A DNA stretch of 64,000 nt, counting the filler, from Hausera hauseri (lineage: Eukaryota), in the NCBI GenBank assembly GCA_046269625.1. It is 11 parts of 11 records of this genome, joined end to end, with 100 filler letters (N's around TTAATTAATTAA, not from the genome) between each part and the next. Parts side by side here need not be neighbours in the genome. Positions count along the whole stretch, not along the records: positions 24,394 to 31,049 come from JBJURY010077772.1; 10 more parts are not named here. The stretch is one strand, 5' to 3'. A model generated the notes under the pieces. The model did no database searches, was not told the origin of the DNA, and worked only from the letters and a program-made list of their open reading frames with translations. Within the stretch, counting starts at the first letter, position 1; every line of letters begins with the position of its first letter. A program made the position numbers and the translations under genes. Of the stretch, positions 10,021-47,925 are shown in pieces.

Positions 10021-10034
10021 AAGGAGGGGGGAAA
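10021..10034 (+). promoter_or_regulatory. Polypurine tract; 3' LTR probably starts with TG at 10035
   Basis: AAGGAGGGGGGAAA followed by TGCTGG right at the end of pol. Confidence 0.65.
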
Positions 10035-11730: not shown

Positions 11731-12444
11731 CTTAAAAGTCAGCGTACGAGCACAGCGTTGAAGTATTGCATGTGGGACATAGATATGTGAGTAGTTGGAA
11801 GGGAGGAGTTGGCACCAACCCCCCAGGGAAGGAAGGAAACCAATAGGAGGAGAACACGTCATCAAGGGGAAGGAAAACTGGCGAATGGGAAGAGNNNNNN
11901 NNNNNNNNNNNNNNNNNNNNNNNNNNNNNNNNNNNNNNTTAATTAATTAANNNNNNNNNNNNNNNNNNNNNNNNNNNNNNNNNNNNNNNNNNNNCTTCTA
12001 ATCGAATGGCCGAGCCTGCAGATATTTACAAAACTTAAATTATGTTGTCTAAATATTGAACTTAAATTATCTGATAATTAATATACTGGGTTTATGAAGC
12101 ATGTTACATTCACACTATGGTGCACAGACTATGAGACACATTGAATTGTATTTTTAGAGTATTTAGAGTTATTTCTCAATAAACTTCGGAGATTCCTTAA
12201 TTCGAATTTTGTCCCACATATTCTAACGACATCTATAAACTCTAAACTGAACAGAAGAAAATTGAGAAATAAAATTTTGATAATTCTGCGCAATTATTGA
12301 TGTGATATTTAAAATTTAGTAGTAGGTTCCAAAATTTAATCTATATAAATAAAAAGCAGGTTGTACATGTGTTTCCGACATTAATTTAATTGTTTAAATA
12401 ATTATCAATTTTAGGATATTTCAGGTTTCGTTTAAAAATTAACT

Positions 12445-17084: not shown

Positions 17085-18237
17085 ATGACAACTATTGAAA
17101 TTCCTTTAAGAGATACAGATGAAGTAATAGAATTAGATACTTTCGCCTTTCCGGAAGTTGACGAAGTTTAAATATTTTAAAACAAGAGGTGGCTCCAATG
17201 CATGTTTGGATTTTAGTAGCCTTACAATATTATCGAACAAAGAAATACAATGATTTCGTTAAAATTTTGAATGAGGCAAATATTAATGCCTCTGTTAATT
17301 ATGAAGAAGCTGAAAAAGACCAAGTGAAAGTGTTAGACATGCTGGCAAACTATTATGTCAAACAAGCAACTAAAGAAAAAACAAAAGAGAAGAAACGCGA
17401 ATTGATTGGACAGGCCGCCGTTCATTTTACAACCGCTGACAGAATAGCAATGTTTGATCACAATCATTTATTGAGTCGAGCGTTTTTCTTTTTATTTGAA
17501 GGTGAAAATTGGTCACAGGTTGATAATCAGTTGAATTTTGTTTTAAATTCATCTCAAACAAATGTTCCCGCACTTGTAGGAAAGGCTTGCATCGCTTTTA
17601 ACAAAAAGGAATATCGACAGGCGCTTTCGTTTTATCGTAAAGCATTACGAAATCATCCTAATTGTCCAGCATCTGATCGACTTGGTATGTGCCACTGTTT
17701 TTTCCGTTTAGGAAATACGGACAAAGCGAAGCTAGCTTTTGAGCGTGCACTGGATTTAGATTCAGAATGTGTTGGAGCGCTCGTCGGCCTCGCAGTACTA
17801 GAATTAAATGAAAAGACTCTAGAAAATGTGCATCAGGGTGTTCAAAAGTTGTCCAAATCATACATGAAAGACAGTAATAATCCAATGGTTTTAAATCATT
17901 TGGCCGATCACTTTTTCTATGCCGGACAGTACAAAAAGGTTCACACTTTGGCATTGCATGCTTTCCATTTTACGGAAAACGAATTAATGCGAGCTCAAAG
18001 TCGTTACCAAATTGCCAGAGGATTCCATAAAGAAGAAAACTATGACGAAGCATTCCAGTACTATTATCAGGCAACACAGTTTGCATCAAATCAATTTGTT
18101 AATCCATTTTATGGATTGGGTCAGATGTATTTGTATCGGAAGGATTTTGAAAATGTAACATTTTTCGTTTTCTTTCGTTTACTCAAACGCATTTTAATTT
18201 TTAGGCAATCAATTGTTTTGAGAAAGTATTAAAGAAA
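17085..18237 (+). pseudogene. CTR9: PAF1 complex TPR subunit CTR9, N-terminal third
   Basis: IEIPLRDTDEVIELD, PALVGKACIAFNKK, NPMVLNHLA, AFQYYYQATQFA; frameshift near 17170; 50-bp intron 18155-18204; similarity ends after CFEKVLK. Confidence 0.92.
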
Positions 18238-21483: not shown

Positions 21484-23375
21484 ACCCTTGATTTGGACAG
21501 ATGAAGATGAACGCCTGACGTTTGCAGCCACCGATGAATGTTACCTGTGCCACCACAAAATATTGTCGGAATGGCTCATACCGGATCACGACCATTTTAC
21601 CCGGTCGATACTTTGGAGCAGCATGCAACGCATGCAATTTGGCAAGACGGGTGTGCCCATTCTTGCCGGTGATATTTCATAACTTCAAGGGTCATGACCG
21701 TCATCATATTCTAAAATGGGCCATAAACGGATTTCGCAATGGGAGCTATCCATAATCCCAACGACGATGGAGAACTACCTGTCCCTATCGACACGCATAA
21801 ACCGGTTTCAGGTACGGTTTTTTGACTCATTGCAGTTCCTCAGTGAGTCTATAACAAAGCTCGTAAATGCCTTGTCCCATGTGCCGCTAACACTGACGCA
21901 GTTCCCCACACATATTGCACGCAGCAAAGGCATATGACCTTGCCGTGCCATATGAGTGACCACGGACAACAGAGGAATTACCGCCGCGTTGGATAGGTAT
22001 CACGGAAGATGAATATCAGAGATCACAGGAATCTTGGACAGAACTCGGTTGTAGAAACATGTTGAACTACATGCTTCAGTATCTAAAGCTCGATGTGTAC
22101 CTATTAGCCGATGTGTTTCAGGCATTTCGGGCTAAAGCGTTGGAGGAAGATAGGTTGGAACCGCTCAACTTTTACTCAGTATCGGAAATGAGTTGGCCCT
22201 CTGCACTAATGTCAGTGTATTGGTGCATTGAGCTGCTACAAGACCCGGGAATGTACCAACTTTTTCACGTTGGCATTCGTAGCGGCATGACATTTGTCAA
22301 CAAGCATCACGTAACCAGTGATGACGAAGATAATACAACGTCAATGTTGTACATCGATATTAATAACCTGTACGGCTGGGCGCTTTCGCAACCCTTGCGG
22401 TACGATTAATTTGAATGGATAATGGACAAACAAGAACTGGATACATTGCTGAACAGACTGCCAGCAGAAAACATGACAGAAAGCAACTCAGTCGGCTACC
22501 TAATGGGCGTTAATCTCGAGAAACGAGCTGCAGCTTGTACAAAGTTCGAAAAGGACTAATACAAGCTCAAAAACAATTAACTTTACGGGAAAACAGTGGA
22601 AAATCTAAAGATTCGGCTCAATGTGCTCCTGTGCAACAACAAAAAATGACTGGTTACGTACACCAGCAAGTCTCAGTTCAGGCGGTCAACGCACATTGCC
22701 GATGGATTGGTCACCGTGCTTCTAAACCGGGAAGAAGTCGTATTGGACCAACCAAGCTACATCGGATAAGCGGTATTGGACCTGAGCAAGTTGCAAATGT
22801 ACAAGCTCCAATATTGCGACTTGGTACGTTACCGGCAAATGTTCGGCGGCCGCGGCGGCGGTAGCTGTGAGATCAATATCGTTGCCGGTGACACAAACAG
22901 CTTCTTCTTTGAGCTGAAAAACATCAGTCGAGACCAGCTGCTCTGACAAATGATGTCAGATAGACTACTGGACACGTCCAACTACCCACCGGACCATCCA
23001 TTGTACAGCAGCGTGATAATAAACAAAATCGGCTACTTCAAGGGAGAAAGTGAAGGCCGGGTTCAATACAGCTAATGGATATTTTTGCGCCCAAAATGTT
23101 ACAGTCTTCTGACAGAATGTGTGACGAAAGTGCGGGCAAAAGGCATCCAGCTGAAACAGACGGAAATAAATCACGGTGATTATCGCCGTATCTATGATGG
23201 ACAAGAAGACGGAGAAGGAAGAAAGGCTGTTGTGTCTCAAACGACCATACGATCGATTAAGCACCAGCTGTATACCATTACAAATAAAAAGGTTGGTTTG
23301 TCATGCAACGATGACAAGCGAAAGTGGGTGGGGCAAAATAAGAGTTGGGCGTACGGACATTGGCGTTTGAGATAA
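21484..23375 (+). pseudogene. Polinton/Maverick-like protein-primed DNA polymerase B with N-terminal endonuclease VII-like zinc motif
   Basis: CYLC..DHDHFTGRYFGAACNACN, FHNFKGHD, FFDSLQFL, YLKLDVYLLADVF, YIDINNLYG, KLKNNxLYGK, GDTNS, LDTSNYPPDHPL, LRPKCYS, AKG, DDKR, AYGHW; stops and frameshifts. Confidence 0.9.
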
Positions 23376-24110: not shown

Positions 24111-26945
24111 AAAAGTAAAAATGAAATGGACTTACTGCAACCTGGCACAATTGAACTGTCGTTGTTGTTGTAGATGCTGTTGTTTTGTGCAGACATTTTA
24201 GAGACAAAGTGAAATAAAAAGACATCCATATTTATATCAACTTTTGTTTTCATTGTAAACAATAGACATTTACTTTGTAAGTATTGTCTCATANNNNNNN
24301 NNNNNNNNNNNNNNNNNNNNNNNNNNNNNNNNNNNNNTTAATTAATTAANNNNNNNNNNNNNNNNNNNNNNNNNNNNNNNNNNNNNNNNNNNNGATATTC
24401 CTCCTTTAATGGAGATGATAAAAATTGCCTTTGTCGAAAACCGACGATGTGCGGACTTAGAGAGCCGCATAAAAATGGAAAATGAAAAAAGGTCACAGAT
24501 CAACAGTTTGAGAAATCGAATTATGTTTATAAATAATGAAGAAACCAAATATATAATAAAACCTTGTATCATAGAATTCGACGAATATAAGGATGAGCTC
24601 AATTATGTTAGTCAATTCATGAACTTCATAAAAGGCCCAGACTACGAATTGAAAGATGCCTACAAGATATTAGACAAAATGATATTAGCCATGCCAATAA
24701 TCGCCAATCGATTGTCAGAATGGTCCGAATTAATAACGAGATTAAGTAAATTAGTAGAACGTAAGAAAGAATTTCCGGAAAGCGAACCATCGGTAAAAAA
24801 GCAACTGGGAGAGGGTGCACGTAACTTAACCACCATACAAGCAGAAATTGGCATCCGGACATGGTTCGAAGCAAATTTTATGAAGAAGAAACAAGAAAAG
24901 ACAACCTTAGAAGAAATATATAAAATGACTGAAGGGACAAACTTCACGGAAAAGCAGAATATGACTTTCAATCTGTACTCAAGGTTAAGAAGTCTTCGAC
25001 GAGAGGGAATCCAATACTTAACAGACAGATATATCGACGAGATTTCAATCCAGGATACCGAAACCTTGGATATTTGTCCGGGAGATAGAGTAGCCCTAAT
25101 AGAAGCAGTAAGATTCTTGCATAAACCACAAGAATGGATAGCTGGTACTGATTAGAACTGTTACACCGAATTGACGAAAATAAGAAACAACCAACGTCTT
25201 AGTGCTGAAAAATTTAATTTCGTAAAGATATTGCTGGATGCGATGGACCCCGACTCAAAAATTATAAATAAGATGTATGGACTAGCCTACTTATTGGTAG
25301 AAATGGTGGAGATTAATGATGAAAGGATGAGGCAATTAATGCCCAAAATACAACAAGTTGAAGAAACATGCATCAGAACGAAACAAAGAACAACGAGGCT
25401 AAATGAACTAGTAAGAGTTTGAAGGCTACCGGAACAAATACGCTTTTACGGAATCAGAAATTAAAAATAAGCGAGAATTTGTACAAAGATGGCAGAGATG
25501 TGGTTATTAAGCTGACCGACTATCACCAAAAGGAATTCATCAATTCTAACGAGTTAGGCGAATTACTGAAAAGGATTCAATATGCCTGCGGAAATGGAAT
25601 AGGATTACGAACTACACAAATGAAAGAAATACAACCAAAATTGAGAGAAATTTGAGAAAATGTGCAAAAAACAAACACAGCTCTAGTAGACTATGGACTC
25701 CCAGATATTGGGAATAAACCGGAATGGAATGCTTATTTAGAAGAAATAACGGCCGAAAACCTGATAACTCCAATACATCTAAATAAAACAGAAATGTATC
25801 CGCAGGACAGGAAATTCAATGTGGAGATGCTCCTAGACTCAGCACTAACCGAAAAGAATCTGATCGAACTAATTAACGTAAACATGTCTGAAAATAAGCT
25901 AAGACAACTTATTCCGACCTTGACTAAATTAGCTAGCGAATACGATTTAAAGCGCGGTGCCGAAACTTCTGATGAAGAAATATGCGAATATTTTGAGAGC
26001 CCAACCCGAGATAACGATGAAGGTAATGCTATCATCCGAGTGGATGGAAGAAAATGAATGTGAGTTAACTACTTATTCCTACGTAAAGGACGTAAGAGTG
26101 GTTATTAGATAATGGCGGAACAAATGAGCTAATCTACCGATTTTACTTTAGAGAAAGAATACTCGACGATTTAGAACAGTTAATAGATGTCGGAATTATC
26201 CCCGTCGAAACAAATCTCATAATAGTAACAATAGCCAATGAACAGACGAAAGAAGAAGCCACGCGAAAGGCTAAAACGGAACAATGTGTAGGACAAATCA
26301 TGGGAGTACGAGATTCGGCAATGTATTTCGAGTATTTACAGACGGATGAAGACAAGGAACAATACGACAAGAATCTAGTACCGCTAGGTGGAATGCCAAC
26401 CAATGTTCCAAGGCCAAAACGTCCGGTCGGTAGACCTAGGAAAGTCCTAGAAGTTGACTATAACGGAGAATCAATTAGAGAACTGAGACAAATTTCAATC
26501 CCCGCCTGTAGCACAGACAATAAAGAATTAAACGAGTTAATGAAGGATTTAATACGGATTGTGAATTATTCCAATCTCCGAGAAGATACATTAGATGACA
26601 AAGAAAAAGCAATATTCAATGCAGCCAGGACAATGAGAAGTTCGCGTTTCAAACTATCAAAAAGTAGCCTAACTGACGACGCATTAGTTGAAATGATGGT
26701 GGAGAATACGATAGAAGAGCTGAAAAAAGTATTATTGTACTTGGCAATTAAGACAAATCCAAATCGGGAAGATGAACTAAATCGAGATACACGTTTCGCG
26801 CGAAAAGCGTCTAGAAAACTTCCGTGAAGTAAATTGGCCAAAACTGTTTGACAAGGAAGAAAACAAGAATAGTAATAATGGACTCGGAGGCATCATACGG
26901 AACCTGATAACGACAGATAACAACAACCGAAAGAATGATTCTAAC

Positions 26946-28980
26946 TGGTTAATCAGTTTGCTCACTATAATGATGCTAATAAAACAGATGGATGTTGTCA
27001 CTGTCTACGATTGCGGTAGACTTAAGTTAGGACAAAAATACTCATTAATGGACTTAGAAGCGTGTAAAGATGCTAGACCACATAAATTGGAAACAAAGGA
27101 GAAGAATTATTTCCTATACCAACAAGAGTTGATATCTTTGGATGGCATGGAATGTATGCTGAGACAATCTCGCAACATTTTCCACTGTTTACTTATGAAC
27201 GGACATTCTTCAATAATCAAACCAACAACCCATCCGATTCCAATGAATTTGGAAAGACAGCATTGAAAGCAGGCCCGAGAGACCGGAAGATTGAAATGGG
27301 ATAGTATGGAACTAGAAAGGCAGCCCCGAAAGATAATTAGAGCATACAAAATAGTAGTTGGAAGGTTAGATATGCATAACGGGCACTGTAGTGGAGCAGA
27401 ATGACACCGGAAAAGGACTAGAAGCAAACGTAGTAATAGTGGACTTTTACAAATCGGAAATGCGAGTCCAGAAAGTGATGTTCCATAGCGTCACTAAGCT
27501 ATATACAGAGAATCAAAAATGCCACATGCAAGACGGGACCTGCGCTTTCAGAAGTTCTGTCGTCATATGGGAACCACCCGCAGGAAAAGGCTGTAATTTT
27601 ATTAAGATTAAGGAACTAAAATTTATTGAAACTACCGGAAAACAATACGTAGATAAATCCGACATCAGATCAAGAGCACGAGAAGACGTATCAGAGCACC
27701 ATACACCTACGATATTAATCTCGGATCAACACGGGTTAAAATTCATAAAAAAAGAAATGATTTCACGCTGCGAAGTAGTAAAGTTCACCACTAACTACAA
27801 AGTGTTCTTCGTCGCAGAAACGGAGATAAACGCAAAAACACAACTTAGAAACGCAAGATATTAGAGTTGAGAATTATCTAAAAAACCGAGACGATTATTT
27901 TTATTATAAAGGACAAGTCGGGATAGCCGAGCTATATCACAAAATGATAAATAATGACTGCAAAGTAGATACGAAAATTATGAGAACAAAATTAGCCCTC
28001 ATTTATGCAAACCCGGAATTAGCCTCACCAATTATTCCCATGAGAAAAGGAATTTTTGGTCGAGTTACTGGTGAAGTTCTGTTGACCTAAGAATGCGAAA
28101 AAAGAGACGTACCGATCAATGTCGAAGAAAAACGATGAATACAAGAGCTCCCTGTAATCTACCAAAATACTCCACGTCTAGCCATGCCCCTCACTAGTGT
28201 TGCTTGATAATGCAACACAACCAACCATCTTAAAGGATTGTAAAGCAAATCTGGGTGAACCAATTGGGTTAGCTTACCTAATGGAGGTATCACTATAATT
28301 CCTAAAAAACTAACTCGAACAAATTTAGCAAAAGGAATAACTGATGATAAGTTTCAGAATATATCAAAAAGGTATTTACAGGCCTAAAGAAATCGAAGCT
28401 TTCTGACAATTCCTTGCCTTTCCACGACAACGAACACACGAATTAAATCGGGCTATGGCATCAGTAGTTGATGACACTCGATATCAGGCTAAATGGGAAT
28501 CCTTACTTGGTGCAAACCATTACCAACGGGTGATCACAGAAATACTACAAAATATGGGGAAGGTTTTTAATTTTTGGACAAGCTGCATCTGGATTTTTAG
28601 CAATCTGTTTCTTGGTACAACTAATAAAAACAGTAATCCAAGCGGTTATAAATGGGTACGAAATATTCACGCTAACAGGATTTTCCTGCAAGATTTTGAC
28701 CGCAATTATCACCCCGTTTGGTAAAATGCTTAAAGTATACGAAGAAAATCGATGGAAAAATGACGTTAAACGCCATGTCGGCTACTATAATTATAAACGA
28801 CGAGCAAGACCCACATTACTAAAACACAAAGCTAAGAAACCAGCAACACGAAGAAATGACTCCCATGATGACGAGCCTAAGGGAGGAGAAGCAATCCTCA
28901 AACAAAATAGACAAAATGTATTTAGTAATCAAAGCACCTTTGCCTATTATGCCGCCAACGGCTCCAATATACGAAGATTG
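26946..28980 (+). pseudogene. Envelope glycoprotein, chuvirus-like (class III fusogen), copy 1
   Basis: Hydrophobic signal, then VYDC..YSL..C..YQQ..C..FHC..GHSS..ETG, Cys-rich ectodomain, TM region ~28570-28720, cytoplasmic tail. Confidence 0.75.
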
Positions 28981-29389
28981 TAATAGAACATCTATGGTGT
29001 CATAGAAATAGGATTTCTGTCGAGGACCTTTTAGCTATGAGGACCCTTATGAAGGAACAAAACAATACGGAGTGTGAAAAATCAAATCACTAATCAACGA
29101 CGAGCGGAAGATGATCATAGGATATTGTACTCACCGAGAATAGTTCGTAATAGAGACAAGATCGACAGTCTGGGGAACTCAAGGAATGAAATCGCTCCAA
29201 AACCAAATAATACAAGAACCATCAATTAGAAACAACGCAGGTAACGTAGCAATCAACGACTTATACCCTAACGAAGAACTGAAACAGTTGACCGAGAATA
29301 TCATATCATCACCAGAAATAACGATAAACGGACATAAAATTTCTTCAATTAAACGACCAAAGAACGTGTCAAGTTGTTATGGAACAGTT

Positions 29390-29750
29390 ATGGAAGGGAG
29401 ACCTTTCACGAAGGTTACCATAGAAGATTGGGAAGTTTATGCCTTAATCGACACAGGATCGGAAAAAACGTTTATCAAATTAGAATCAATACCGCCGATA
29501 TTACGGAAACAATTACAGCCAGCGTCATCATCAGACCCGGGGAGTATAGGAGCCTTCGGGCAAGAATCCAAACTGAAATTTAAATGGAGTCCTGTAGTTC
29601 AATTAATGGGCCAAATCTTTCGACACGAATTCGCCGTAATGGAGCAACTAACTGATGACTTAGTATTAGGATGTGACATGCTGAAACAATTACCTAATAT
29701 CGCAATAAATTTACAGACTGGGAAACTACTTGAACTCGGACCAGTGAAAG
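29390..29750 (+). CDS. Retropepsin aspartic protease domain
   Basis: GRPFTKVTIEDWEVYALIDTGS..DLVLGCDMLKQL. Confidence 0.9.
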
Positions 29751-30254
29751 GGATTAAAACAATGAAAGAAAGCAAGGAGCAGTATGGATTCCCGTCGACG
29801 AAAATATTCCGCCAAGAAGCGAAATGCTAATTTACGCTCAAATCCGCGAAGAGGACGACCAACTAGTATATTTTGAGCCACAAGACGTTAACCCAAATAT
29901 CATACTTAGTAATATTTTGATAAGAGTAACGAAAGGAAGAGTGCCAATCAGATTAGTAAATAACGCACCAACTCCTGTAAAGTTGTACGCAAATACTACA
30001 TTGGGTCATACTTATAAGGTGTCAGCAATAACAATTGAAGAAAAGCCATATAAATATGCTGAATTTCCACCTCATGTCGAAACGGAATTTTCACCAGAAG
30101 CATATTGTCAATTTTATGAATTATTACGTAAATATAAGTCGATCATCGTCCAAAATGAAGAAAATATAGATAGAGCAAAAACCTTAAAGTTAACTATATC
30201 ATTGAAAAAGAAACCCGGCTCAAATGATGAAATAGATTTAGAAGAGCAAAAGAT

Positions 30255-30910
30255 GCCAAAATGGTACCCACCGCCTCATTCCTTAAGGCCCGAAATAACA
30301 AAAGAGGTAGAACGTATGTTGAAAGCCGACATAATACGACCAAGTTATCGATCTTGGTACTCACTAATACTCATGGTCAAGACAAAAGGTACCACTAAAC
30401 ATCGATTCTGTATAGATTAAAAAGCCCTAAATACGCTTATGATGAAAGATTCATTTCCGCTACCGTCAGTAAAAGAAGCTCTAGACAGATTATCGAGAGC
30501 AAAATGGTTTACCACACTGGATTTACAATCCGGATACTGGCAAGTAGAAATTGAAGATGATCGTTATAAAACGGCATTCAAGGCACATGATGGACTGTAT
30601 GAATTGAATGTCATGCCGTTGGGTATAACAACTGGCTCAGCTATCTTCACAAGAATGATGAATAAAATGCTAATGGGACTCGATCATGCGTTCGCATATT
30701 TAGACGATGTAATGATAGCATCAAGGACAGAAGAGGAACACTTAAAGGACATCGAAGACACTCTTATGCGGTTGGAACAAGCAGGATTGAAACTGAACCC
30801 AAAAAAATGTAAATGGGCTCAAAATGCTGTATCTTATCTCGGACATATAGTCGGAGAAGGAGGGTCAAAACCAGATAAATCTTTACTAAACAAAATATCG
30901 GATTGTATGT
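30255..30910 (+). pseudogene. Gypsy reverse transcriptase domain
   Basis: RFCID*KALN, DSFPLP, LDLQSGYWQV, KTAF, MPLG, AYLDDVMI, KCKW..YLGH. Confidence 0.92.
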
Positions 30911-31149
30911 GTGAGGAGGAATTCAGGCAGCCAATATAAAGTGAGGAAATTCATAAGAGGAGGAAAATAAGGTTCATTTACTGATTGAATTGAGTGAAAT
31001 GTTATATCAACTTTTACAATAAAAACCTTATGGAAAATTCTACTTTACANNNNNNNNNNNNNNNNNNNNNNNNNNNNNNNNNNNNNNNNNNNNTTAATTA
31101 ATTAANNNNNNNNNNNNNNNNNNNNNNNNNNNNNNNNNNNNNNNNNNNN

Positions 31150-32545
31150 AAATTATGTATTTGTTATACCTTTGACAACGAAAACAACAAAACTATGCTT
31201 CAACTTAATTAGCACAATTAATCCATTCAACCATAAATGGTGTCAGAAAAATTCGTGGCAATCGGATGTGGATATTATCAACAAGGTAATGTTAGTATTC
31301 CTATCCAGTTTAAATTTTAAAAATTATTACAATATTTTTAAGTTTGTATCTACTAATCCTCATATTTTCCTTTTGTTCCATGTTGTTGTACATAGCCGCA
31401 TTATCGCTTTTGTCTTCATTTAACGCGCCAGAGTACATTGATTTTATAACGTCAAAGGACTACATGGAGTCGTGGAATTTGAAAATCGACGCAGAACCAT
31501 TGACTTTAAGTGTAAGAGATGTAAACCCGTATAATGTATCATTTGGCGGGCGAGTCATTAATACGAAAGCGAAGCATGATCGGAAGTTTGGTCAAGTTCG
31601 ATTCGATGTTACCAGAGGTACTAATCATAGAATTGTGGTTATTGTCGCTGAAACAAATTCAAACCATTTTACAAAATTTATTGAAGATGTTCAGAGAGAT
31701 TATCAAATTGGGAGTTAGTTCTTCGGTCGAAATACTTATTTCCTGTCGAAGCAATGAAATTGCAGACGTTTTAAGCGAGCAAATCTAGGTTAATAAAATC
31801 CATATTGCGTTGATATTTAATAATGATGACAGAGCTTACAGTCGAGTTAAAGCTTTCACCATTAACACAAGTTTGTTGACTCAGTGTGTCACCCATAGAA
31901 ATGGCACTAATCGTGATAAGCGAAAACGTAAGGTTGTTGCTGATAAAACCGTAATGCAAATGTTTGCTAAAATTAGTTATAATCCGTGGGGCATTGATTT
32001 AAAACTTAGTCTGACTTTTTGTTTGTTTAGACACATTCCACAGTAAGACTGGTAGGAGATCGGTTTAATCTTCAGTTTTTCCTACCAGTACAAAGTTCAC
32101 TCAATATATTAGCTTCGTTAATATGACTAAGGACAAAATTGAATACCACGATTCGTTGAACGGAAATTTCGCAGCGACAATTAAGTGTTTAAAAGATAAG
32201 TTTAACATTTTGCTTCAAAGGTACATGATCTGTCATGATGATGCTGGCGATTCTCCGTCGTATTTTATCAAACTGCATAAAACTGAAGCAGTTTTAAAGA
32301 TTATTGAAAATATCTATGAGGGTGAAAACTTGCCGGAGATTATTTTTGTTGTCGTTAAAAAGCGTATTAGTGTGAAGTTCTTCAAAGATGGTGGAAATGC
32401 AAATGCTGGGACACTTGTCGATGAGAGGATAGTCAAGCCGCATTATTATGAGTTTTATTTGGTGTCTAAAAACACAACAAAGGGTACTGCATCGCCTATC
32501 AATTATAATGTTTTGATGAATACTATGTTAGAATTACAAAAATAT
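31150..32545 (+). pseudogene. piwi: Piwi-clade Argonaute fragment (MID-PIWI), decayed and 3'-truncated
   Basis: LTQCV..QMFAKISYNPWGI, IIFVVVKKRISVKFF, GTLVDERIVKPHYYEFYLVS, GTASPINYNVL; stops and frameshifts. Confidence 0.85.
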
Positions 32546-32559
32546 TGTACCCTTACCTT

Positions 32560-35500
32560 TCTTACCAAAGACGTCGAAGAACCAATTCCGCATAATCTTA
32601 GAAAATCATTGCATGCGGCGAATTCGGTCACCCCAAAGTTTGAGATTCGCTGCGGCGAGGCTGAACGTTTGGCCTCCCACCCTATACCATTGGGCCAGAT
32701 GGAACCGTTTGCCGACGCTTCACGACACGCCCATGGCTACACGATCACACCGTATTCCCTCTTCTTTTTTTAAATAACAAACATTTTTACACAACGGCAT
32801 TAACGCACTTAAACACTGCAGCTATCTACAACGTCATCTCCACTTTTCTTTGATCATCTGACTTTTACATCACGCACAATGGCTGCACAGTACCTATCGC
32901 CGGAACCCTACAATCTTTTTGAACTTATACCCATCTCCACATACACTTCCGCATCCGTGATGGCATAAATTTGTCGCCAACCATCGACACAACGGATAAA
33001 ACCGCCTCGAAACCAAAATCTGTTAAACGGCTTCAAAAATCCACCCCTACCTCTGCCAATAATTTTTCACATGCTACACCTTCCACTCCTTTCCCTCACT
33101 GCACCGAATTCTTTACTGACAACCAAGGCTTCAGCAAAACTTGGTTGCAATTCCACCAATTGTGGCTACAAGCAAACAATATCACCGATTCCTTAACCAA
33201 ACCACACAATCTACTCTTCTTACTCCCTAACAACATTGAAACACAAATTCACAACATTCGCGAAATCTTTGAACTTCCTGACCCATATTCACAACTTTCA
33301 ATGGTGTTCTCTAGATCACAGAACTCTCAGTGGACGCGATCATACAACGCTTCTTTCACGACAATGCTACAGGCACACAACGACCATCAGACCTTTTACG
33401 CACCTCTTTAGCACATCTATAAACCCTTGGCGTCACTAAGAGCACAATCCAGAACTACTGCGCCACTACTTCCTCAACGCGTTACCCATCCAAATTCGGA
33501 TCCTACTTACCATGGTGCAGAACTCCACGGCTTTTGAGAAATTGGCCGAATTAGCCGATAGAACACACGACATCCTACACTTAAATTCCCCACCAGTCGT
33601 TTCGGCGGCAGTTGCCACTACCAGTATACAAAACAACAATACATCAATAGAGTAACAACTAAGTCAGTTACGTGCCAAAAATACAGCACTACAAGCAACA
33701 ATTAACAATATAAACAACAAATTAAACGAACTTTCCCTGTCCCGGCGAAGGGATTTTGTTGCTGACCGCGCCCATTCTGCATCTAAAAACCGGTCACCAT
33801 CGCCTGCGCGGTCATCTATTTGCTACAACCACAGCATATTCAATAAGAATGCCAAGAAATGCTGCCTAGGGTGCAAATTTTATAATAAAAGTTTTTCTTC
33901 ATACATCGTTGTTTGCATTTACCATGCAAAGTTTTAAAATCAAGCCCGTAAATGCATTCCAGGCTGCACTTTCAAACCAGATACGAACGACGGACGTGCT
34001 ACCTTTTCTTATAATAGCCGTCCTAGTTCACCTTTTCAAAAAAACTAAATTTTCCACCAGAAGTCACGGAAACTCTGGGAAAGACACTACTACACTTTCT
34101 GAATGCCGACACGCCTCCTTCGCTGTTTTTACTATAAAGGCTGCAATCGCTGCTGCTACAACGCAATCCGTTGATTTCCTCATTGATACAGGTGCAGCAA
34201 TTTCTTTATTACTACAAACCTTTCCTGTACAAAATTCACCATTCAGAATTAAACCCTTGTACACCGCTTCAGGTCAATCGCTGCACATTTCTGGCATGTC
34301 TAAGCTATCTTTTATTATACCAAAATTTCCTTCACCTTTGCACTGGACGTACGCAGTTGCTAACGTCCAGACGGCAATCCTAGGGTCTGATTTTCTATCG
34401 CATTAGGACTTATTGGTTGACTGGAATCAACGATGTCTGAAGAGCAGCATCACTGGCAGCATTGCTGAGCATATCAATAGCATTTCGACTACTGCGCAAT
34501 CGATAGAGACGCGGAGATCAATTTTGAGAAAACCAAAAACTACTTTGAATTTTCCTAATATTTTACTCCGTAAATTTTTAAATAATAATACTGATATTCA
34601 ATCGAAGTTCAACGTCGCTAATTGTGGTACTGTCACCAACCTTAATTCACTCGACGAAATTACTTCATAAAACACCATTTTTAATTCGACTATCTTACAC
34701 CAAATACCACTTGACTGCACATTATTAAACCATTTGCAAATCGCATCCGCTACTACTCAAGCTGTTTTACCATCACAGTTGCTTATAACTTTACAGCAAT
34801 TCGTTACCACATTATGTCCACGAGTACTTAAAAAAGATCGTTCGTTTACCCCTGAAAACAGCACTGTACATGACATAATTACACATCATCAACGATCAAT
34901 ACGCCAGAAGGTACGACCACTGTCATGTCGTCGTAGACAGGCCGTAGAAACCGAATTTCTTGAACTTGAACACTCCGGCATTGTATGCCGTTCCAAATCT
35001 CTTTGGTTGTCAACTTTACACGTTGTACAAAAAGGACGGCACTTTTAGACCATGCGGTGACTACATACAGTTGAACAATTTGACCGCCATGGATGCGTAC
35101 CCATTACCACTTATCAGGGATATCTTGCATCGCCTTAATTCAACTATCATTTATTCGACTATCGATTTTGCCAAAGCATACCACCAAATACCGGTGGCAC
35201 GGGAAGATATAGAAAAAACTGCTGTCACTACTCCTTTTGGCCTCTACAAGTACCTGTTTATGCCTTTCGGTTTGCGAAATTCTGCACAGACCTTTCAGCG
35301 ACATATTGATTCGATTCTCTCAGATTTCCCGTTTGCGCACCCTTACATTGATGATATTCTGATCGTTTCGTCTTCCGTCAAACAACACGAGAAACACCTT
35401 CGCGCAATATTCCAACGCCTTGACCATCATAATCTCCAAGTCAATTTTGACAAATGCCATTTCTTCAAAAAGCGCATCAACTTTTTGGGTCACGTTATTT

Positions 35501-36719
35501 CACCAGACGGCCACTCTCCTCAACCCGACCGAGTTGAAGCCCTTAAAAATATCCAGTTACCACATACGACCACCGAAATGCGCAACTTCCTTGGTACACT
35601 ACACTTTGTACATAAATATGTACCATATTGCTCTGAATTGACAGCACCATTTGCACACTTAAGCGATGGCAAAACACATCAGCCAATCTAGTGGACACAT
35701 GAGTTGGTTGAAAAGTTTGATAAGCTACGCTAAGGAATTAAGACCGTCGACATTCTCGCTTTCCCCAAGCCCGATGCAGAAATCATCCTTACCACAGAGG
35801 CTTCAACCACTGCAGTAGGTGCTGTGCTTCACCAAATCTACAAAGGAGAAAATGAACCGCTAGAATTTTTCTCTCGTAAGATAACATCCCCTGAAACCAG
35901 ATATTCAACGTTCGATCGAGAGTTATTGGCCATCGTTATCGCTTTAAAGCATTTCTTCCACCTACTTGTCGCCCGCCATTTTACTATACAAACCTATCAC
36001 AAGCCCTTACTTAGCGTCATGGCTATGAAACATCCATCCACACGCCAAGAACGACAGATATCATACTTATCGACATTTAACTTCGACATAAAACATATTA
36101 ACGGGGTCAATAATTTGGTTGCCGTTTTTTTATCTAGGTCGGTTAGTTCGATTAATTTTAACCGATTTTTACGCAAGCTCAACTTCAACAGAACCAGCCA
36201 CCTCAGGACACACTTAATTCTTTCAAGTCTTGCACGATTGTTGACGATGTGGCTTTAAACACTTCCAAACCAGGTCATTTTTTAATAATCCTTGCACCAC
36301 CGTTGCAAAGGCAAACATTTAATAGTGTACATTCGCTACACCACCCTGGTTCTAAAGCCACTTTTCGTTTACTCCATTGACAAGTAATTTGGTCGTCAAT
36401 GCGTTCTGATGTGCGGGCATGGGTTAAGGAGTGTGTGGCTTGCCAAAAATACAAAACAACTAAGCATTTAAAGCCACCACTGTTCCACCTTCCCTGCACA
36501 TCGCGTTTTGAATCCGTGCATATTGACATCGTCGGCCCCCTTCCTTCAGACAACGGTCATCAATTCATTCTCACCATGATGGACCGTTCCTCGCGATGGC
36601 CAGAAGCCATCCCTCTGCGCAGCACTAATACAGACACCATAACTGACGTTTTTATTCGCACATGGATTAGCAGGTTTGGATCACCTCGCTTCATCATCAC
36701 GGACCAAGGTCCACAATTT
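32560..36719 (+). mobile_element. Ty3/Gypsy element (family B): UBL-gag-PR-RT-RH-IN, decayed
   Basis: FLIDTGA, RPCGDY, DFAKAYHQI, YIDDILI, RNaseH TEAS..YSTFDRELLA..HKPL, integrase H..HPG..CVAC, HIDIVGPLP, TDQGPQF. Confidence 0.93.
32740..32964 (+). pseudogene. Ubiquitin-like leader in frame with gag (ends HLHIHFRIRDG)
   Basis: Homologous to 53029-53271; same frame as gag ORF 32971-33411; two internal stops. Confidence 0.55.
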
Positions 36720-36955
36720 NNNNNNNNNNNNNNNNNNNNNNNNNNNNNNNNNNNNNNNNNNNNTTAATTAATTAANNNNNNNNNNNNNNNNNNNNNNNNN
36801 NNNNNNNNNNNNNNNNNNNCGAAATCCCCAATCTAGGTAAAGAAACCATCATGCACTGGACATTAGTCCCCGTGAATTACGACCCTAGAAAAAGTTTGAT
36901 CAATACTTAACAAAACGAATTATATGGTTATCTGTACTCCGACCAAGATGGTTTA

Positions 36956-37264
36956 GTGCTCGAACAAATACAAATAGTATCCAAAGTCGATTTAGATGGT
37001 GACGAGAACACAAACGAAAACAAAAATATCTTCCCAGTGTGTAGCGAAAATATCTGGCAAGGACACGTTAAATTGGATAATCAAGAGTGTAGGCACAAAT
37101 ATTGTCGTACATGTCTAGAGACGTGGATGTTGGATAATGGGAAAACAACGTATCCAGTGTGCCGAGCGAAAGCAAATGGTCTAAAATATTTTTCAAATGG
37201 CGAATACAATAGATCTATTCCGATCATGACTCAACCCAGCACTAGAGGCGGATGCAGTCAATGA
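36956..37264 (+). CDS. RING-finger (C3HC4-like) ORF at the 3' end of an LTR element
   Basis: (C>F)PVC..CRHKYCRTCLETW..(C>Y)PVCR, just upstream of PPT and LTR; two Cys substituted. Confidence 0.7.
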   Translation: MLEQIQIVSKVDLDGDENTNENKNIFPVCSENIWQGHVKLDNQECRHKYCRTCLETWMLDNGKTTYPVCRAKANGLKYFSNGEYNRSIPIMTQPSTRGGCSQ

Positions 37265-37356
37265 CAGTAATCTCCGGGGTAGACTGGATCTACTGCGCCG
37301 ACAATAAATAGACTCCACCTCTCCTGACGCAATAGGCACATAGGAGGTGGAGTTCA

Positions 37357-37366
37357 GGGAGGAGAA
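37357..37366 (+). promoter_or_regulatory. Polypurine tract
   Basis: GGGAGGAGAA immediately before the LTR start. Confidence 0.65.
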
Positions 37367-37367
37367 T

Positions 37368-38209
37368 TGTTACAGAGTGTGAATGCTATAGTATATTGCT
37401 ATGGAATGTAAATACTATAAAGTAATATGGTAGCAATTATTTGGTATGTATACAGATAAATTGGAATATTTAACAATTAATCGGAATTGATAATGATGTA
37501 ACTATGATTACATAGTTAATTGATGATAGAAAATTGATAAAAATGCACGACAGTTAATTATCAGTCGAAATAATGAAATGAAAATATGTAAATAATCAAG
37601 TGAAAATGACGTAATCGTAAAAACAGTATAGTATATATAGCGACGGATTTCAGTAGTAAGGGACACAGAAATTTTGGAATTGATCTCCAGTGCAAGCGAT
37701 TCAAAGCTATTGAAGCGACAAATTCTTCGGAGAAATCAGACGAACTTGGATTAGTATCCAGTACGAAAGAGATACGAAACGATTGATTGACAGATTCGTT
37801 AGTGAATTTAGAAACGAGAGAAATATTGAAATTCGAAAGCAGTTTTCTTGAAATTATTCGACAGTGATCGAAAGGTTCAATGGACGTGATTGTCATCGGT
37901 ATTAATTATATTTTTTGTGTTTAACAGTCTGAAATTTTTTATATAGTTTCCATCGATCCTTAAGATGGATTAGACTACCCTAAGCTTCTAAAATCTAAGT
38001 TACCTTGTATAGTTAGGAGAGAACTACGATTAACTTGACGCATCAGAAACGCACGCAGTACCTGCACGAATTAATATAATTTTCTAATAAAGTCTACAAG
38101 GTACATCCTGATTTGCCGAGAACGGTAAACCGTACCTGCTAAAAATAAATTTACGATAAACTATTGTTAGATAGTGGGAGACGATTAGGGCCCAACCCGA
38201 AATCTAACA
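37368..38209 (+). repeat. LTR (~840 bp)
   Basis: Inverted termini TGTTA...TAACA, preceded by a PPT and followed by a PBS; AATAAA signals inside. Confidence 0.8.
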
Positions 38210-38211
38210 TT

Positions 38212-38228
38212 TGGGGACCCTAGCAGGA
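38212..38228 (+). promoter_or_regulatory. Primer binding site
   Basis: TGGGGACCCTAGCAGGA 2 nt after LTR end, complementary to a tRNA-type 3' end (TCC...CCA); tRNA not identified. Confidence 0.7.
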
Positions 38229-38604
38229 CAGTTTGTGCCTCGCTAGACTATTACTTCAACTCAGAGTTAATTAAACGACACACCCGCGATTAGCGCATCA
38301 CACCAATTAATTGAATCGACTAGGATATAAAATTAGGGATATAAGGTCCTATATTAAATAAGTGGGTTTTAAAAGCACAATTAATGACAGACATAGTAGA
38401 TAAGAATATTTAAACTTAAACGGTAAAGGAAATATAAACCAAAGACAAACGCGTAGCAAAGTAATAGTAAATTCAAGTGAAAAACACGCACTATCTGGAT
38501 CACGTGAAAATTTAACTAACTTATTACAGATAAAATTTAAAACTCCAATTAAACCAATCGACCAACATAAAGTAGAAAATGGAATAGACGTGAACCGGAA
38601 TAAA

Positions 38605-41600
38605 ATGGCAGCTGATACGACTCGACAGAAATTAGACATTTTTACGTATGAATCATTGAATCTTCCGGCGTATGAAGGCGATCCAGAAGGGCTAAATGAA
38701 CTTTTGAAGACATAAGCTTCACGCCGAAAGCATAGGGTTAGAACCTCATCAGATGATTAGACGATTATCACTTTATTTGAAGAATTTGGTCTCACATGCC
38801 TACGCCAAGTTGACGGACGAAGAGAAAAGAGATTGGTCGTCATTAGTAGGTGCATTAAATAGGAAATTATTACCGACAGTAACTCCACAACAAAAGTTAA
38901 TGGCATTTCAAAATAGAACGCAACAGCAGGGGGAATCAGTCACCCAGTTTGTGTTTGCTTTAAAGAAGTTGGCAAATAGTTATATTAGTACTCTTAGAAT
39001 TTGAAACATGGCTAAGACAAAAGATGACGCCGAACGTAGAGCCGCGGAAAAGGCAGTTCGCTCAGATTTGGATGTAATGATGACAGCGCAACTAATTAAT
39101 GGTATTTTGTCGAGAGACCTGGTGAAACAACTCATTTTAGCGAGACCAGAAAACTTTGAGAAAACATTACAATTGGCTCAAGACTTAGAAATGGCGTTAG
39201 ACAGATGCTAGGCAGAATGAACGATACGACAAGGACGTCGAACGAAATAAGCGCAGAGATAGAAATAGAAACAGTGGATGATTCAACAAACATAGTCAAA
39301 ATCAAAATTTCGATAATAGGATGGATAAGAATCCGCGTTATGCGAACAAAAGTTTAGACAATAATCGAAATTCAAATAACATGAACGCGAAGTCCAACTA
39401 TAACTCGAACCAAGACGGTTACAAAAACAATAACAGAAGTTTCAAATTCAAAGATGGAAACAGATACAATGATTTTAGAAACAATGAAAACAAATATGGC
39501 GGAAATAGTCGAATAGAATCTTCAAACGCAGGCTATTCTAGGAGCGACAGCCGCTCAAAATCGCATATAAATGAAGACGGTCGACGACGGATTGGTAGAA
39601 ACAGAAACTTAATATGCTATACATGCGGCAAGGAAGGCCACATAGCACGATCATGCCCAAATCCTCCGAGCGTTTCGTTTACCGAACCGACTAAGGCAAT
39701 TATGATTAAGACGCAGGAGGATTTAGAAGCGAAATATGGTCCCAGAGGTAACATAGACGCAATTTTGGATATTCAAGATTCACGACAATACCTGCAAAGT
39801 CAACGAGAAACAAACAATCCGCAAATCTTGAAGGCTCAAAAGGAATATAAAGATAACGTACGGATATTAGAAGTATATCATGGATTAGTTAAACCCCGAA
39901 CAAAATATGAGTACTTAATAGCGCCAGACAATAGTAATATGGTTCGCAAGAAGAACGTGCCTGTAAAGCCCGTAGTGACAGAAGAGGTAAGCAAGGTGGA
40001 AGTAGCAGAGACATCGCCCAGCGTAGACTTGGACGCTGAACCTGAAATCCTGACAAAAGGATGTCAAGATGTGTCTGACGAAATAGAGGTCGCAGTCCAT
40101 CACTTAAAAAGAAGCCAAAAGGTCGATCGAGATCGCCATTAAAAAGAGACAATTTAGAGAAAACTCAAGTCCAAGATGCTGACATAGAGGACATCCAGAA
40201 CTTAGACACTCCGGATGTGAAGCTTACTGAAGTTCCAGATATTCCAAGAACAAGCGTAACAGTAGAAGACGCGAACAGCGAGATAAACGAGATATGTCCA
40301 TTACCCGATAGCGAAGGCGAGACTGATGGCACGGAACGAATTAAAAGGCTAGACGGAAAAGTGTGGAGGATCAGAAAGTCCTGGAAAATTGCAGACAAAT
40401 TAAAAGAAATTAGGATGGCGCTAACAGATACGGAGACGATGCGTCGCAATCTGGAAGAATTAAGATATATAAAAACTCAAGTAGATGTGTCTGGAAAAGA
40501 ACAGAAGTTCGCCAAAAGAATGTATAAAGAATTTAAACGATACATTGAGGGAGATGTTAGCAAGGAGAAAGAACTAGAGGTAGTAGATGAAATTGTGGAG
40601 AAATCAATTGAGGAATGGAAGGAAACTAAATTCATGAATAAAAAGCGGAATCGACTTCACCTAAACATGGAATAATCAAGAGATAGAAATTAAGAGTAAA
40701 GTGGAGACTGCCCAAGGATTACTTAAGACGCTAGAGACGGATCCAAGACAGAAGCGAACAAAACAAAATTTAGAAAAGTTAGTGGTAGAAATAGAGAGCG
40801 CAGTAATCTATCACCTCAAAAATAAACCAATATACGAATTGGATGAAAACAAATTTTAATACTAGGCATAGAACCTGTAGACAATCCTCTCATAATGGAA
40901 ATGTGAAAGATCGAGTTCAACGCACCCAAAGAATATACGGACATAGGAATTCGCATAGCCTCGCAAGATAAAAGGCGCTCCGAAATTTACAGATGTAGGA
41001 ATACAATAACGTATGCAGAAAACCAAGAAGTACAAAACATAACGAAAACATGTATTTTAGAACTGGACGAATACAAGAAGGAAGTTAACTACGTTAAAGG
41101 AGTAATGGACTATATTAAAGGTCCAGACGATAAATTGAACGACGCCTACGAACGATTAGAAAATGTAATAAACGCGAAACCAATGATAGATTACCAACTC
41201 AAAGAATGGATTGAACTGTTAGACAAATTAGTGAGTCTAACAAAATATCGTCTAAGGAAGTATTCAGAACGTGAACCGATATTAAAACAACAGTTAAAGG
41301 AAATACTCCGTAACCTAGATGCTTATAAAATAGAGGCAAACCTTCGAGTTGAAATTAACTCATTATTGAGACTAAAATTTATGATTAGAGATCAGGAAAT
41401 AAAACTCACAGAAGAATTGTATACCATGATCGAAGAAATGGAATTATCGGCAAAACAGGAAAAGATCTCCTCCTTATCGATGAGACTAAAAGATGTCCGC
41501 CTAGAAGGCGCACGACACTTGGCAGCAAGGCCCATAGACAAAATATCCATGTGATTTATCGACGTTGGATATTTGCCCAAATCATCGGATCGCGTTAGAA

Positions 41601-44600
41601 GTATTAAAATATCTACATCGTCCTTTTGAATAGGCATCAGATACCGACCAGAATTGTGACGCTGAATTAACAAAAATAACCAAAGATCATCGCCTCACAC
41701 CGGACGAAGCTAAATTCGTAAAGAGGCTGATTGAAGAAATAGATCCAGATTCAAAGACTCTAAAAAAATGCGCGAAATAATATCACTACTATCGACAATG
41801 GCAGAAATAGATGACAAGACGCGACAATTGACAACTCAAGTTAAAGATATAGGAGAATTGCGAATTCGCACAAAGCAAAGAGCCACGAAGCTAGATAAAT
41901 TAGGCAAAGAATTGAAGACTTATAAGAATAAATATAAGATCACGCAATCAGAGTTAACGAATAAAAGAGAATTCGTACAAAGATGGTTAACGAATGTAAC
42001 GACCAAATTAACAGATTACGAAAGAAAAGGATTGCTTCTTACAGACGAACTAGGACCGACATTAAAAACGATACAACTTGCGTGTGGAAATGGAGTAGAG
42101 TTCCGAACTAACTTGATGAGAGAAGTACAGTTGATATTAAACGAGATACGCGGAAATGTACGAAGAGCGTCCGCAGTATTGTTGGATTATGGATTACCAG
42201 ACATCACAGACGACTCAGGATGGGATGCTTATTTGGAAGATTTGTACAACCAAAACCCAAAAACACCCATCCAACTTCAAGAAATCGATATTCTTCCAAC
42301 AGACCGACGATTTGAACAGACGAAAGATGAGGCTGTAAGGAAAGTGAGAGATGAACATTGCGTAGGACGCATTATGGGAATCCGAGACCCTATAATGTAT
42401 TTTGACTACCTCCAAAGTGAAGAAGATAAGGAACAGTACGATAAGAATCTAGTACCGATAAGCGAAACAATACCAACTGCGCCGAAACAGAAACGACGAG
42501 TTGGAGGGCCGAGGAAAATAAAAGATGATATTAACCAAAGTGCAGCTCTGATACGAGAACTAAGGCAACTATCCATGCCCGCGATTAACTCCGATAGCGA
42601 AGAATTAAACGAGTTGCTGAGAAACATTATAAAAATAGTGAACTATTAGGGACCAAGAAACGAGATGTTAAACGAAAAAGAAAAAGCAATATACGACGCA
42701 GCAAGGATAATGAGAACATTTCGGTTCAAAATGAACAAAAGCAACTTACCTGATGAAGTTTTAATCGAAAAAATTATGGTAGAGAATACTAAGGAAGAAT
42801 TAATGAAAGTAATATTGTACTTGGCAATTAAAACAAATCCCTTAAAGGAAAATGAATTCAATAAAACCATTGGATTGATCAGAAAAGCTGCTAGGAAGAT
42901 ACCTAGAGAGATAAATTGGTCCAAGCTATTTGTCGACGAAAATGGAAATAGGCCGACCACTAGAATTGAAGGTGTGGTAAGAAAATTAATACCAACTAAC
43001 TCAGCGCAAGATAGTAAATCAATTTGGATGATTAAACTAGTAACACTTATAATGTTAATAAGACAGCTCGGTGCAGTCACAATATGACTGCGACAAGTTT
43101 AAGGTCGGACAAAGATATTCCTTGATGGATCTGGAACTATGCGAAGACGCCCGACCTCACAAGTTAGTAACTATTAAGAAAAGGTATTTCTTGTACCAAC
43201 AACGCGAACTAATCGCAATAGATGTGATAGAGTGTATGTTACGACAATCGCGAAGCATTTTCCACTGTGGAAATATGCACGAACATTCGTCAATCATAAA
43301 ACCAACAACTCCGCTGATTCCTATGGATTTATAACGACAACAATGCAAACCAGCCAAGGAAACAGGAAGATTGAGATGGGATGGGATGGAGTTAGAAGCT
43401 CACCAGGAAAGATAATTCGGGTGTATAAAGTAGCAATTGGGAAATTAAACATGCACACCGGATATTGTAAAGGAGGTGAATACGATACAGGAAAAGGAGA
43501 AGCGGGAATAGTGGTGGTTGATTTCTGAGACAGAAATGAGAAACCAAAAGGTGATGTTCCATAGTGTTACAAAAACATACAGAAAATCAGAAGTGTTATA
43601 TCCAGGATGGTGCCTGTACTTTCCGAAATTCGATAGTTATTTGGACTCCGCCACTTATGAACGATTGTAACTTTGTTAAAATAAGAGATAAATTTCAACG
43701 AAACCACGGGAAAACGATATGTAGACACAACCGACAATAATGCCAGGTCAATGAAGGACGTCGCTGAACAGTTTATACCCACGATACTGATCTCCAAAGA
43801 TCACGGATTGAAGTTCATTAAGAAGCAAATGCTTTCCCGATGTAATGTAGTAATGTACGCCACCAATTACGAAGCATTCTTGGTAGCAGAAGCGGCAATA
43901 ACTACTTTTGCTTTGGAAGCACAAGATGTAAGAATAGAAGATTATTTGAAGAATAGAGATGATTACTTTTATTACAAAGGACAAATTGGACTAGCAGAAT
44001 TATACCACAAGATGATCGCAAACGACTGTAAATTAGATATAGAAATTATAAGAACCAAACTAGCCTTAATATATGCAAATCCAGAACTAGCATCACCTGT
44101 AATTCCAATAAAAAAGGCATTTTCGGAAGAGCTACCGGAGAAGCCCAATTAACTTACGAATGTGAAAAACGAAATGTATCCATAAACGTAGAGGAAAAAC
44201 GTTGTATTCAAGAATTACCAGTCATATATCAGAACGTACCTCGATTGGCTATGCCACTTACAAGAGTTTTGCTAGAAAACTCGACTCAGCCAACACTTTT
44301 GAAAGAATGCAAAGCAGGTTTAGGCGAACCTATGTTTAAGAGAAGTGAGACAGATTGGGTAAGTCTGCCAAATGGAAGAGTAATAGCTATGCCTGGCAAA
44401 TCAACTGGAACAAATTTGTTAGAAGGAATAACCGACGATACGTTCGCCGACACTGCAGTAAAGGGATTTACAGACCAAAGGAAATCGAAGCTTTCAGACA
44501 ATTTCTAGCCTTCCCTCGACAGCGTACACATGAGCTAAATAGAGCCATGTCAACGGTGATGGATGACACTCGCTATAAAGCAAAATGGGAATTCCTACTT

Positions 44601-44837
44601 GGCGTCAATCATTATCAGAGTCACTACAGAAATACTATATAAAATTTGGGAAAGATTTTTAATTTTCGGACAAGCTGCATCAGGATTTTTAGCCATCTAC
44701 TTCTTGGTACAACTCGTAAAGGCTATAATTCAATCCATCATAAATGGCTATGAAATATTAACTCTAACCGGATTTTCATGCAAAATTTTGACCGCGATCA
44801 TAACACCGTTTGGAAAATTTCTGAAGGCTTACGAAGA
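38605..44837 (+). mobile_element. Ty3/Gypsy element copy 2: gag (capsid + CCHC) - coiled coil - glycoprotein
   Basis: Gag capsid motif FQNRTQQQGESVTQF, knuckle CYTCGKEGHIARSC, long helical region homologous to copy 1, glycoprotein from ~43025. Confidence 0.9.
43025..44837 (+). pseudogene. Envelope glycoprotein, chuvirus-like, copy 2
   Basis: Signal WMIKLVTLIMLIRQLGAV, YDC..YSLMDLELC..FHCGNMHEHSS, NDCKLD, TM GQAASGFLAIYFLVQLVK. Confidence 0.75.
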
Positions 44838-47800: not shown

Positions 47801-47925
47801 GGAACATTCTTTAAGAACACAATCATTACTTGTTTCCAATATTCACACAGCGAACATTGCGACTTCTTAACTCACAAATTTGTACCACATTTGGATATTT
47901 TCACCTTCAACTACAAGTGCAAGAA

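Follow-up and report, generated by a model that had tools for sequence, protein, structure and literature searches.

Sequence analysis points to a decayed class III-type envelope gene in a Ty3/gypsy element laid out like planarian Burro

The window analyzed here, i.e., the whole stretch of 64,000 nucleotides from the Hausera hauseri assembly GCA_046269625.1, consists of 11 pieces of 4–8 kb each with N spacers between them (five of the five spacer cores checked were identical). An envelope (env) gene was located on the plus strand at positions 26946–28720, inside a 6.7-kb piece (24394–31049) referred to as copy 1. Its reading is split across three frames, with at least four frame changes (near 27.40, 27.82, 28.37, and 28.55 kb) and four stop codons in the in-frame pieces (27264, 28088, 28136, and 28404). 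In a Pfam scan, three of the four frame pieces passed the cut-off of PF24664 (Monjiviricetes_fusion) and kept the order of the model, namely 26781–27263 (E 5e-7, model positions 6–98), 27830–28087 (E 3e-7, positions 296–378), and 28534–28980 (E 6e-14, positions 538–613), all on the plus strand. The fourth piece, 27370–27861, was without a Pfam match, yet could be aligned to intact relatives.

The env region of copy 1, read along the plus strand, begins with a hydrophobic segment (26946–27005; hydropathy peak of 1.78 at 26949–27005), which is a putative internal signal segment and is found before the YDC/FDC motif in relatives as well. It is followed by a class III-type (gB/chuvirus-like) fusion ectodomain (27006–28593), interrupted by stops and frame changes, and a predicted transmembrane anchor (28594–28650; hydropathy peak of 2.22), which lies inside the last of the three PF24664 matches. 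The cytoplasmic tail and the linker to the protease (28651–29401) are broken in copy 1; a PTAP motif at about 28955 lies in the frame of the protease motif, as it does in copy 3. The ectodomain is collinear with intact relatives and retains 11 of the 14 cysteines conserved among 13 of them. An earlier note on this DNA had described a cysteine pattern running from YDC through HCG to ETG. When all six frames of the window were searched, a loose form of this pattern turned up three times, once in each element copy, compared to 0 of 100 shuffles, and a chance motif was thereby ruled out; the loose form is also found in 21 of the 36 database matches described below. The strict form with HCG was not upheld to the same extent: it fits copy 2 only (at 43083), and HCG is absent from copy 1.

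The PF24664 matches agree with the previous description of the gene as a chuvirus-like class III glycoprotein and, together with the polyprotein context, rule out a cellular protein. Comparison with viral fusogens gave a match for the Pfam profile, but 0 matches for the env profile against PDB sequences. A word-index homologue search with the env N-terminal alignment also returned 0 matches, which is weak evidence, and pattern scans of metagenome and viral contigs, which reach close relatives only, confirmed no related locus. Judged from its sequence, the stretch 26946–28720 is the decayed class III-type (gB/chuvirus-like) envelope gene of a Ty3/gypsy element.

The remainder of copy 1 lies on the same strand. 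What remains of the long helical linker that joined gag to env (24394–26090) is broken and showed patchy nucleotide similarity to copies 2 and 3 and no significant Pfam family in the scanned pieces; the matching region of copy 2 gave weak coiled-coil matches. A pre-env open reading frame (26096–26827) contains a putative Bcl-2-like helical domain from about 26500 and, at 26429, the sequence GRPRK, which we take to be AT-hook-like. Beyond env, an aspartic protease (29402–29740; DTG at 29450; PF00077, E 3e-6) and a Ty3/gypsy reverse transcriptase (RT) together with its linker from the protease (29758–30936; YLDD at 30697; PF00078, E 8e-30) were found; the RT is truncated close to the piece end, RNase H and integrase lying beyond it. 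For the linker, Pfam gave no match, yet it aligns to relatives; the best of eight PDB matches of the RT was Ty3 RT (E 1e-30). The Gypsy-type nature of both enzymes, as assigned in the earlier note, is confirmed by these matches. Since protease and RT were found downstream of env, env stands upstream of pol, an order that the earlier note had left unmentioned.

Two further copies were detected in other pieces. Copy 2 (36820–44837, plus strand) is 68% identical to copy 1 at the nucleotide level over 2.56 kb, and copy 3 (55065–59702, minus strand) is 68–75% identical in five stretches. Positions 37357–38230 of copy 2 comprise a purine tract, an 842-bp TG...CA LTR-like segment (37368–38209), and primer-site-like bases, recognized by sequence pattern only and with a single LTR-like copy. 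The gag of copy 2 (38600–39670), 4.3 kb upstream of env, has a CCHC knuckle (about 39615) besides the capsid region and was assigned by zf-CCHC (E 3e-7), by the gag of the relative P0007 (E 6e-15), and by Retrotrans_gag (E 0.0015, below the cut-off). Positions 39700–44837 cover the linker, the Bcl-2-like domain (42530–42964), the signal segment, and env, which is cut by the end of the piece; this region was assigned by its identity to copy 1, and two pieces of its env match PF24664 below the cut-off. In copy 3, identity to copy 1 and the frames at the junctions delimit linker, Bcl-2-like domain, 5′ part of env, an internal deletion, env tail, protease, and RT. A RING finger (36929–37258, plus strand; PF00097, E 2e-5) immediately precedes the purine tract and the LTR-like segment in copy 2, a position that suggests the 3′ end of a preceding element sharing the LTR in a tandem arrangement.

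Stops and frame changes occur in each of the three copies, which puts these copies, though not the family, outside the intact-ORF rule of the published errantivirus catalogue. The order gag-env-pol was assembled from three sister families that are about 70% alike, with gag-env taken from copy 2 and env-protease-RT from copies 1 and 3. In copy 2 the pre-env reading frame continues into the signal segment with 0 stops. Copy 3 keeps the start of env in the frame of the pre-env domain (one stop), and the env tail, PTAP, and the protease motif likewise lie in one frame with one stop. These shared junction frames, along with the single-ORF relatives, point to an ancestral element that may have encoded gag, linker, env, and pol as one polyprotein.

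A HMMER search over 1.84 billion proteins retrieved 36 matches at E ≤ 0.001, ten of them at 1e-10. All database matches scanned (15 at first, then eight more, with two cluster members scanned beside them) fit PF24664, with E values of 1e-78 to 1e-98 for the intact full-length ones. Among the first 15, eight encode gag, protease, RT, or integrase domains together with env in a single ORF, and env precedes the protease in seven of the seven that have one. The nearest intact relatives are single-ORF polyproteins in the order env, protease, RT, RNase H, and integrase; P0041, a cluster member of 4,844 amino acids, combines such an ORF with ankyrin and C2H2 domains. Repeated aspartic-protease-like domains were seen in P0041, P0010, P0006, and P0008, with up to seven stretches in P0041. 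In four of six located relative tails, a YP-D/N word lies about 40–50 residues before the first protease motif.

The env of copy 1 is 17–30% identical to 13 relatives and at most 30% identical to any database match. In the env tree, the window copies and eight relatives form a clade (100/99) in which the window branch is long (2.59), and P0016 and P0023 fall outside. The RT tree, which comprised five relatives only, recovered the same split, again with P0016 and P0023 outside the window clade (96/100). The comparison of glycoprotein and RT phylogenies proposed in the earlier note is therefore concordant for the one split shared by both trees, and reaches no further than the five relatives of the RT tree. 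Both trees were built from the window copies and their database relatives. The agreement is weak but concordant support for a common descent of env and pol.

A Bcl-2 domain stands directly before the env signal segment in six of the 36 relatives (P0007, P0008, P0005, P0031, P0035, and P0038), four of which were chosen by eye or by Pfam and two by the profile of those four. All six matched PF00452 below its cut-off, and BH1 and BH2 were clear in each of them. Against the PDB, the relatives' profile found Bcl-xL as the best match (E 6e-5), and the best 60 of 107 rows all belonged to the Bcl-2 family. No match to this profile was found in P0006, P0010, and P0041; the module seems to have been gained, lost, or diverged within this group.

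For the window, comparison of the relatives' Bcl-2 domain with the pre-env reading frame by HMM and hhalign was not significant (12 of 100 shuffles reached the score), the window pre-env profile found nothing meaningful in the PDB, and the ESM Atlas gave no usable match for the domain. An AlphaFold2 model was built from the three window copies alone, with copy 2 as the first sequence (pLDDT 63, pTM 0.61). When it was compared with 48,161 solved chains by VIA-align, ranks 1–23 were all of the Bcl-2 fold (Z 4.9–6.7; rmsd 3.3–4.8 over 94–114 residues), values below 7 being common for helical bundles. BAK came first (Z 6.7, rmsd 3.3 over 108 residues), and a fold other than Bcl-2 appeared only at rank 24 (Z 4.8). 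The Bcl-2 hypothesis had been set before this structure search. Foldseek returned nothing with E below 0.4 for the model; its named rows of highest probability were viral Bcl-2 proteins. Based on the model, the pre-env domain of the window is probably Bcl-2-like, and by its sequence such a domain is one that has lost the BH1 and BH2 motifs detectable in relatives.

The dN/dS check suggested earlier was run as pN/pS on codons in frame in copy 1. For env, the ratio was 0.18 between copies 1 and 2 (0.15–0.21; 465 codons) and 0.23 between copies 1 and 3 (245 codons). The pre-env domain gave 0.35 and 0.22, respectively, the protease 0.32, and the RT 0.12. As synonymous sites are near saturation, the true ratios are probably lower. 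These sequence comparisons indicate that env was under purifying selection while the sister families diverged, i.e., that it was functional then and that the copies decayed afterwards. The infectious endogenous virus suggested in the earlier note stays hypothetical, as all three copies are broken and the ratios speak of past selection only. In run X1, 18,691 contig records of at least 85% identity covered all 30 bins, as did 1,222 in run X2; the contigs are short, and none spans the whole stretch. This abundance fits a high-copy family, with the reservation that depth is not copy number.

Several features were observed in the other pieces. A separate BEL/Pao element (5519–11894, plus strand; Peptidase_A17, E 4e-24) and a second, unrelated Gypsy RT-RNase H-integrase region (34948–36719, plus strand) showed no env in the ORFs scanned. 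A BEL/Pao context for the env gene was ruled out, the Pao element being situated on another piece. At 59803–64000, two C3HC4 RING fingers (PF13920, E 3e-11 and 2e-9) precede a stretch of coiled coil and gag-like sequence; this piece gave no tblastx match to the three copies and is possibly a further element of Burro-like type, with the RINGs as accessory domains. Furthermore, a long CTR9 coding stretch (17198–18151, plus strand) and a PIWI-domain fragment (32069–32770, plus strand) were found, both suitable as markers of host affiliation, as well as an ORF (21960–22409, plus strand) that by eye resembles a protein-primed DNA polymerase B fragment, presumably from a Polinton-type element. A word-index homologue search with an Ints3-like host ORF gave 0 matches, again weak evidence. 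A single-ORF Ser/Thr kinase (47815–48774, plus strand) is located in a piece with TAAC repeats and lower CpG, which is possibly prey, host, or contaminant DNA.

An arrangement of this type has been described for planarian Burro/GYPSM1. According to PMC6431247, a 4,873-amino acid ORF of Burro/GYPSM1 contains Gag, Smc-like, Ubi-like, and BCL2 motifs; the Burro env, which matches mononegaviral fusion glycoproteins, lies in frame between BCL2 and the protease; a dUTPase-like region is present; and decaying Burro copies occur in Dugesia japonica. An IAP-carrying Burro1 that protects stem cells is cited in PMC13465017. The likeness of the window family to Burro/GYPSM1 is one of layout: Gag with a CCHC knuckle, a long linker, and a BCL2-like domain are followed by env, protease, and RT, and both have decayed copies with stops and frameshifts and a high copy number. 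Burro/GYPSM1 differs in having two to three CCHC knuckles versus the one seen here. Burro elements are giant (an internal region of up to 25 kb and more than 30 kb with LTRs), a scale beyond that of the window pieces, which are at most 8 kb long. The 842-bp LTR-like segment looks short beside Burro proper. MATH, BIR, ankyrin, Ubi/SUMO-like, and dUTPase-like domains, which belong to the Burro/GYPSM1 description, had no Pfam match in the window pieces scanned. The Bcl-2-like domain here is without BH1/BH2.

Chary and Hayashi (PMC13524379) count 114 gypsy elements with a Chuviridae-like glycoprotein, report GAG-ENV-POL gB-type elements in Nematoda, Bryozoa, and Platyhelminthes, argue for an ancient acquisition, and present gB-like AlphaFold models for the HSV/gB-type ENV. 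Among these elements, Smed_errantivirus_1-6 (Platyhelminthes_C1a, HSV/gB-type ENV) are similar to the window copies in their Ty3/gypsy RT, in having env before pol, and, compared by eye, in the cysteine spacing and motifs of env domains I–II, in which they also resemble the relatives, but they are intact elements, whereas the window copies are broken. The Anakin-type mosquito BEL/Pao elements and Jingchuvirales glycoprotein EVEs carry the same broad kind of glycoprotein (PMC10084718 and PMC13524379), and the HCG motif known from copies 2 and 3 is present in three mosquito BEL sequences as well. They differ in RT superfamily and in their arthropod hosts, and the window is without a sign of a free-standing viral insert. 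With the count of 114, the earlier premise that such captures are known mainly from BEL/Pao elements is not supported, a premise accounted for by PMC10084718 (2023), which found no clear Gypsy capture of such a glycoprotein.

The main text of PMC13524379 contains 0 occurrences of Burro, Bcl, or polyprotein. The Burro polyprotein and the gB-type GAG-ENV-POL errantiviruses may nevertheless be two descriptions of a linked kind. Among the literature found, PMC6431247 alone bears on the structure or mechanism of Bcl-2 or late domains in elements of this kind; Sacco 2022, Lee 2026, and Grohme 2018 may cover the subject. The window family is a divergent new member of the described kind, Burro-like by layout and not assigned to Burro proper.

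With high confidence, we regard the locus as the env region of a decayed, high-copy GAG-ENV-POL gB-type Ty3/gypsy LTR element that is built like planarian Burro/GYPSM1, and env is an old, inherited part of the element lineage. The element would have run from gag through the long helical linker, the Bcl-2-like domain, the signal segment, the class III-type fusion protein, the anchor, and the tail to protease and RT; in relatives, RNase H and integrase come after RT. In active ancestors, one polyprotein would have spanned the ER membrane two times: its internal signal segment would have directed the ectodomain of Env to the luminal side, and the anchor would have halted transfer. A signal segment combined with a stop-transfer anchor would leave both Gag and Pol cytosolic and tied to the Env-bearing membrane. 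Signal peptidase and the element protease may then have freed the parts, and particles with a fusogenic coat could have budded and moved between host cells. Cellular Bcl-2 proteins have a C-terminal membrane anchor, and the signal segment might have doubled as such an anchor for the Bcl-2-like domain, which probably dampened apoptosis of the producing cell. PTAP is a motif for ESCRT budding, and its presence in the tails of copies 1 and 3 would suit this route. Among relatives, a late-domain motif was present in two of the six tails in which the anchor was located (11 tried), versus 7 of 95 control windows, and 157 of 5,000 shuffles reached this level, a weak signal.

Two other readings of the env gene concern its origin and its use. 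The earlier note had proposed an independent capture, and in line with this, PF24664 is named after Monjiviricetes, the window env stands on a long branch at low identity to its relatives, and a viral protein may be among the 36 database matches, most of which are without an organism name. It is nonetheless highly improbable that a Gypsy element without env recently took up a chuvirus glycoprotein, or that a viral insert of non-retroviral origin merely sits inside a retrotransposon: env occupies the same place inside the gag-pol polyproteins of relatives and has the same Bcl-2-like neighbor, frames are shared across both env junctions, and one split, the only one open to comparison, is common to the env and RT trees. 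The proposal of independence is not supported, given that the nearest relatives found are retroelement polyproteins with env in this very place and that the layout was already published for Burro. Alternatively, env might have been selected for cell-cell fusion or as a membrane scaffold of intracellular particle assembly, with an element that never leaves the cell. The signal for a strict late-domain motif is weak in relative tails (two of six), and PMC13524379 gives the transmission mechanism as unknown outside Drosophila. Against such a role, the signal segment and the anchor have been kept, as have 11 of 14 cysteines and an ectodomain of full length, and selection on env was near that on the RT; we consider it rather unlikely.

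The host is, we infer, most likely a triclad flatworm, and the earlier statement of a non-arthropod host holds insofar as it is probably not an arthropod. The same element and mechanism could instead belong to a land snail, which would place a Burro-type family outside planarians by horizontal transfer or old inheritance. This was raised by the kinase at 47815–48774, the one host gene with named matches: 11 of its 13 matches are named, all Candidula or Bradybaena (presumably both land snails), at 44–58% identity. However, each piece is a contig of its own, and the sample may have been mixed, either from a predator with its prey or from a host with its parasite, and CpG observed/expected is 1.04–1.20 in the three element pieces versus 0.74 in the kinase piece. 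Furthermore, all 25 rows examined among the 46 for molluscs in supplement 1 of PMC13524379 have F-type env, and the window env resembles, by eye, the Schmidtea group. A snail host is thus unlikely, and a mixed sample may be the simplest account of a snail-like kinase next to a flatworm-like element. An enveloped, Bcl-2-armed Burro-type family resident in a land-snail genome, with a polyprotein whose signal segment anchors a motif-less Bcl-2 mimic and whose PTAP serves budding, is distinctly unlikely. If true, residence in a land snail would be the first outside flatworms in the literature found and a candidate case of transfer by means of env, with a predator or parasite on one side and its prey on the other.

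Read as a Burro-like GAG-ENV-POL element, the locus extends a described kind by a divergent, decayed family and joins the Burro BCL2-Env-protease polyprotein with the gB-type GAG-ENV-POL errantiviruses, which, on this point, seem to have been described without reference to one another. As the putative Bcl-2-like module was kept under purifying selection after the loss of its motifs, annotation by sequence only would miss modules of this type. The finding would matter more if the host were not a flatworm, or if the double-pass topology of the polyprotein were true. In the latter case, such elements would have a way of forming enveloped particles that does away with an env message of its own.
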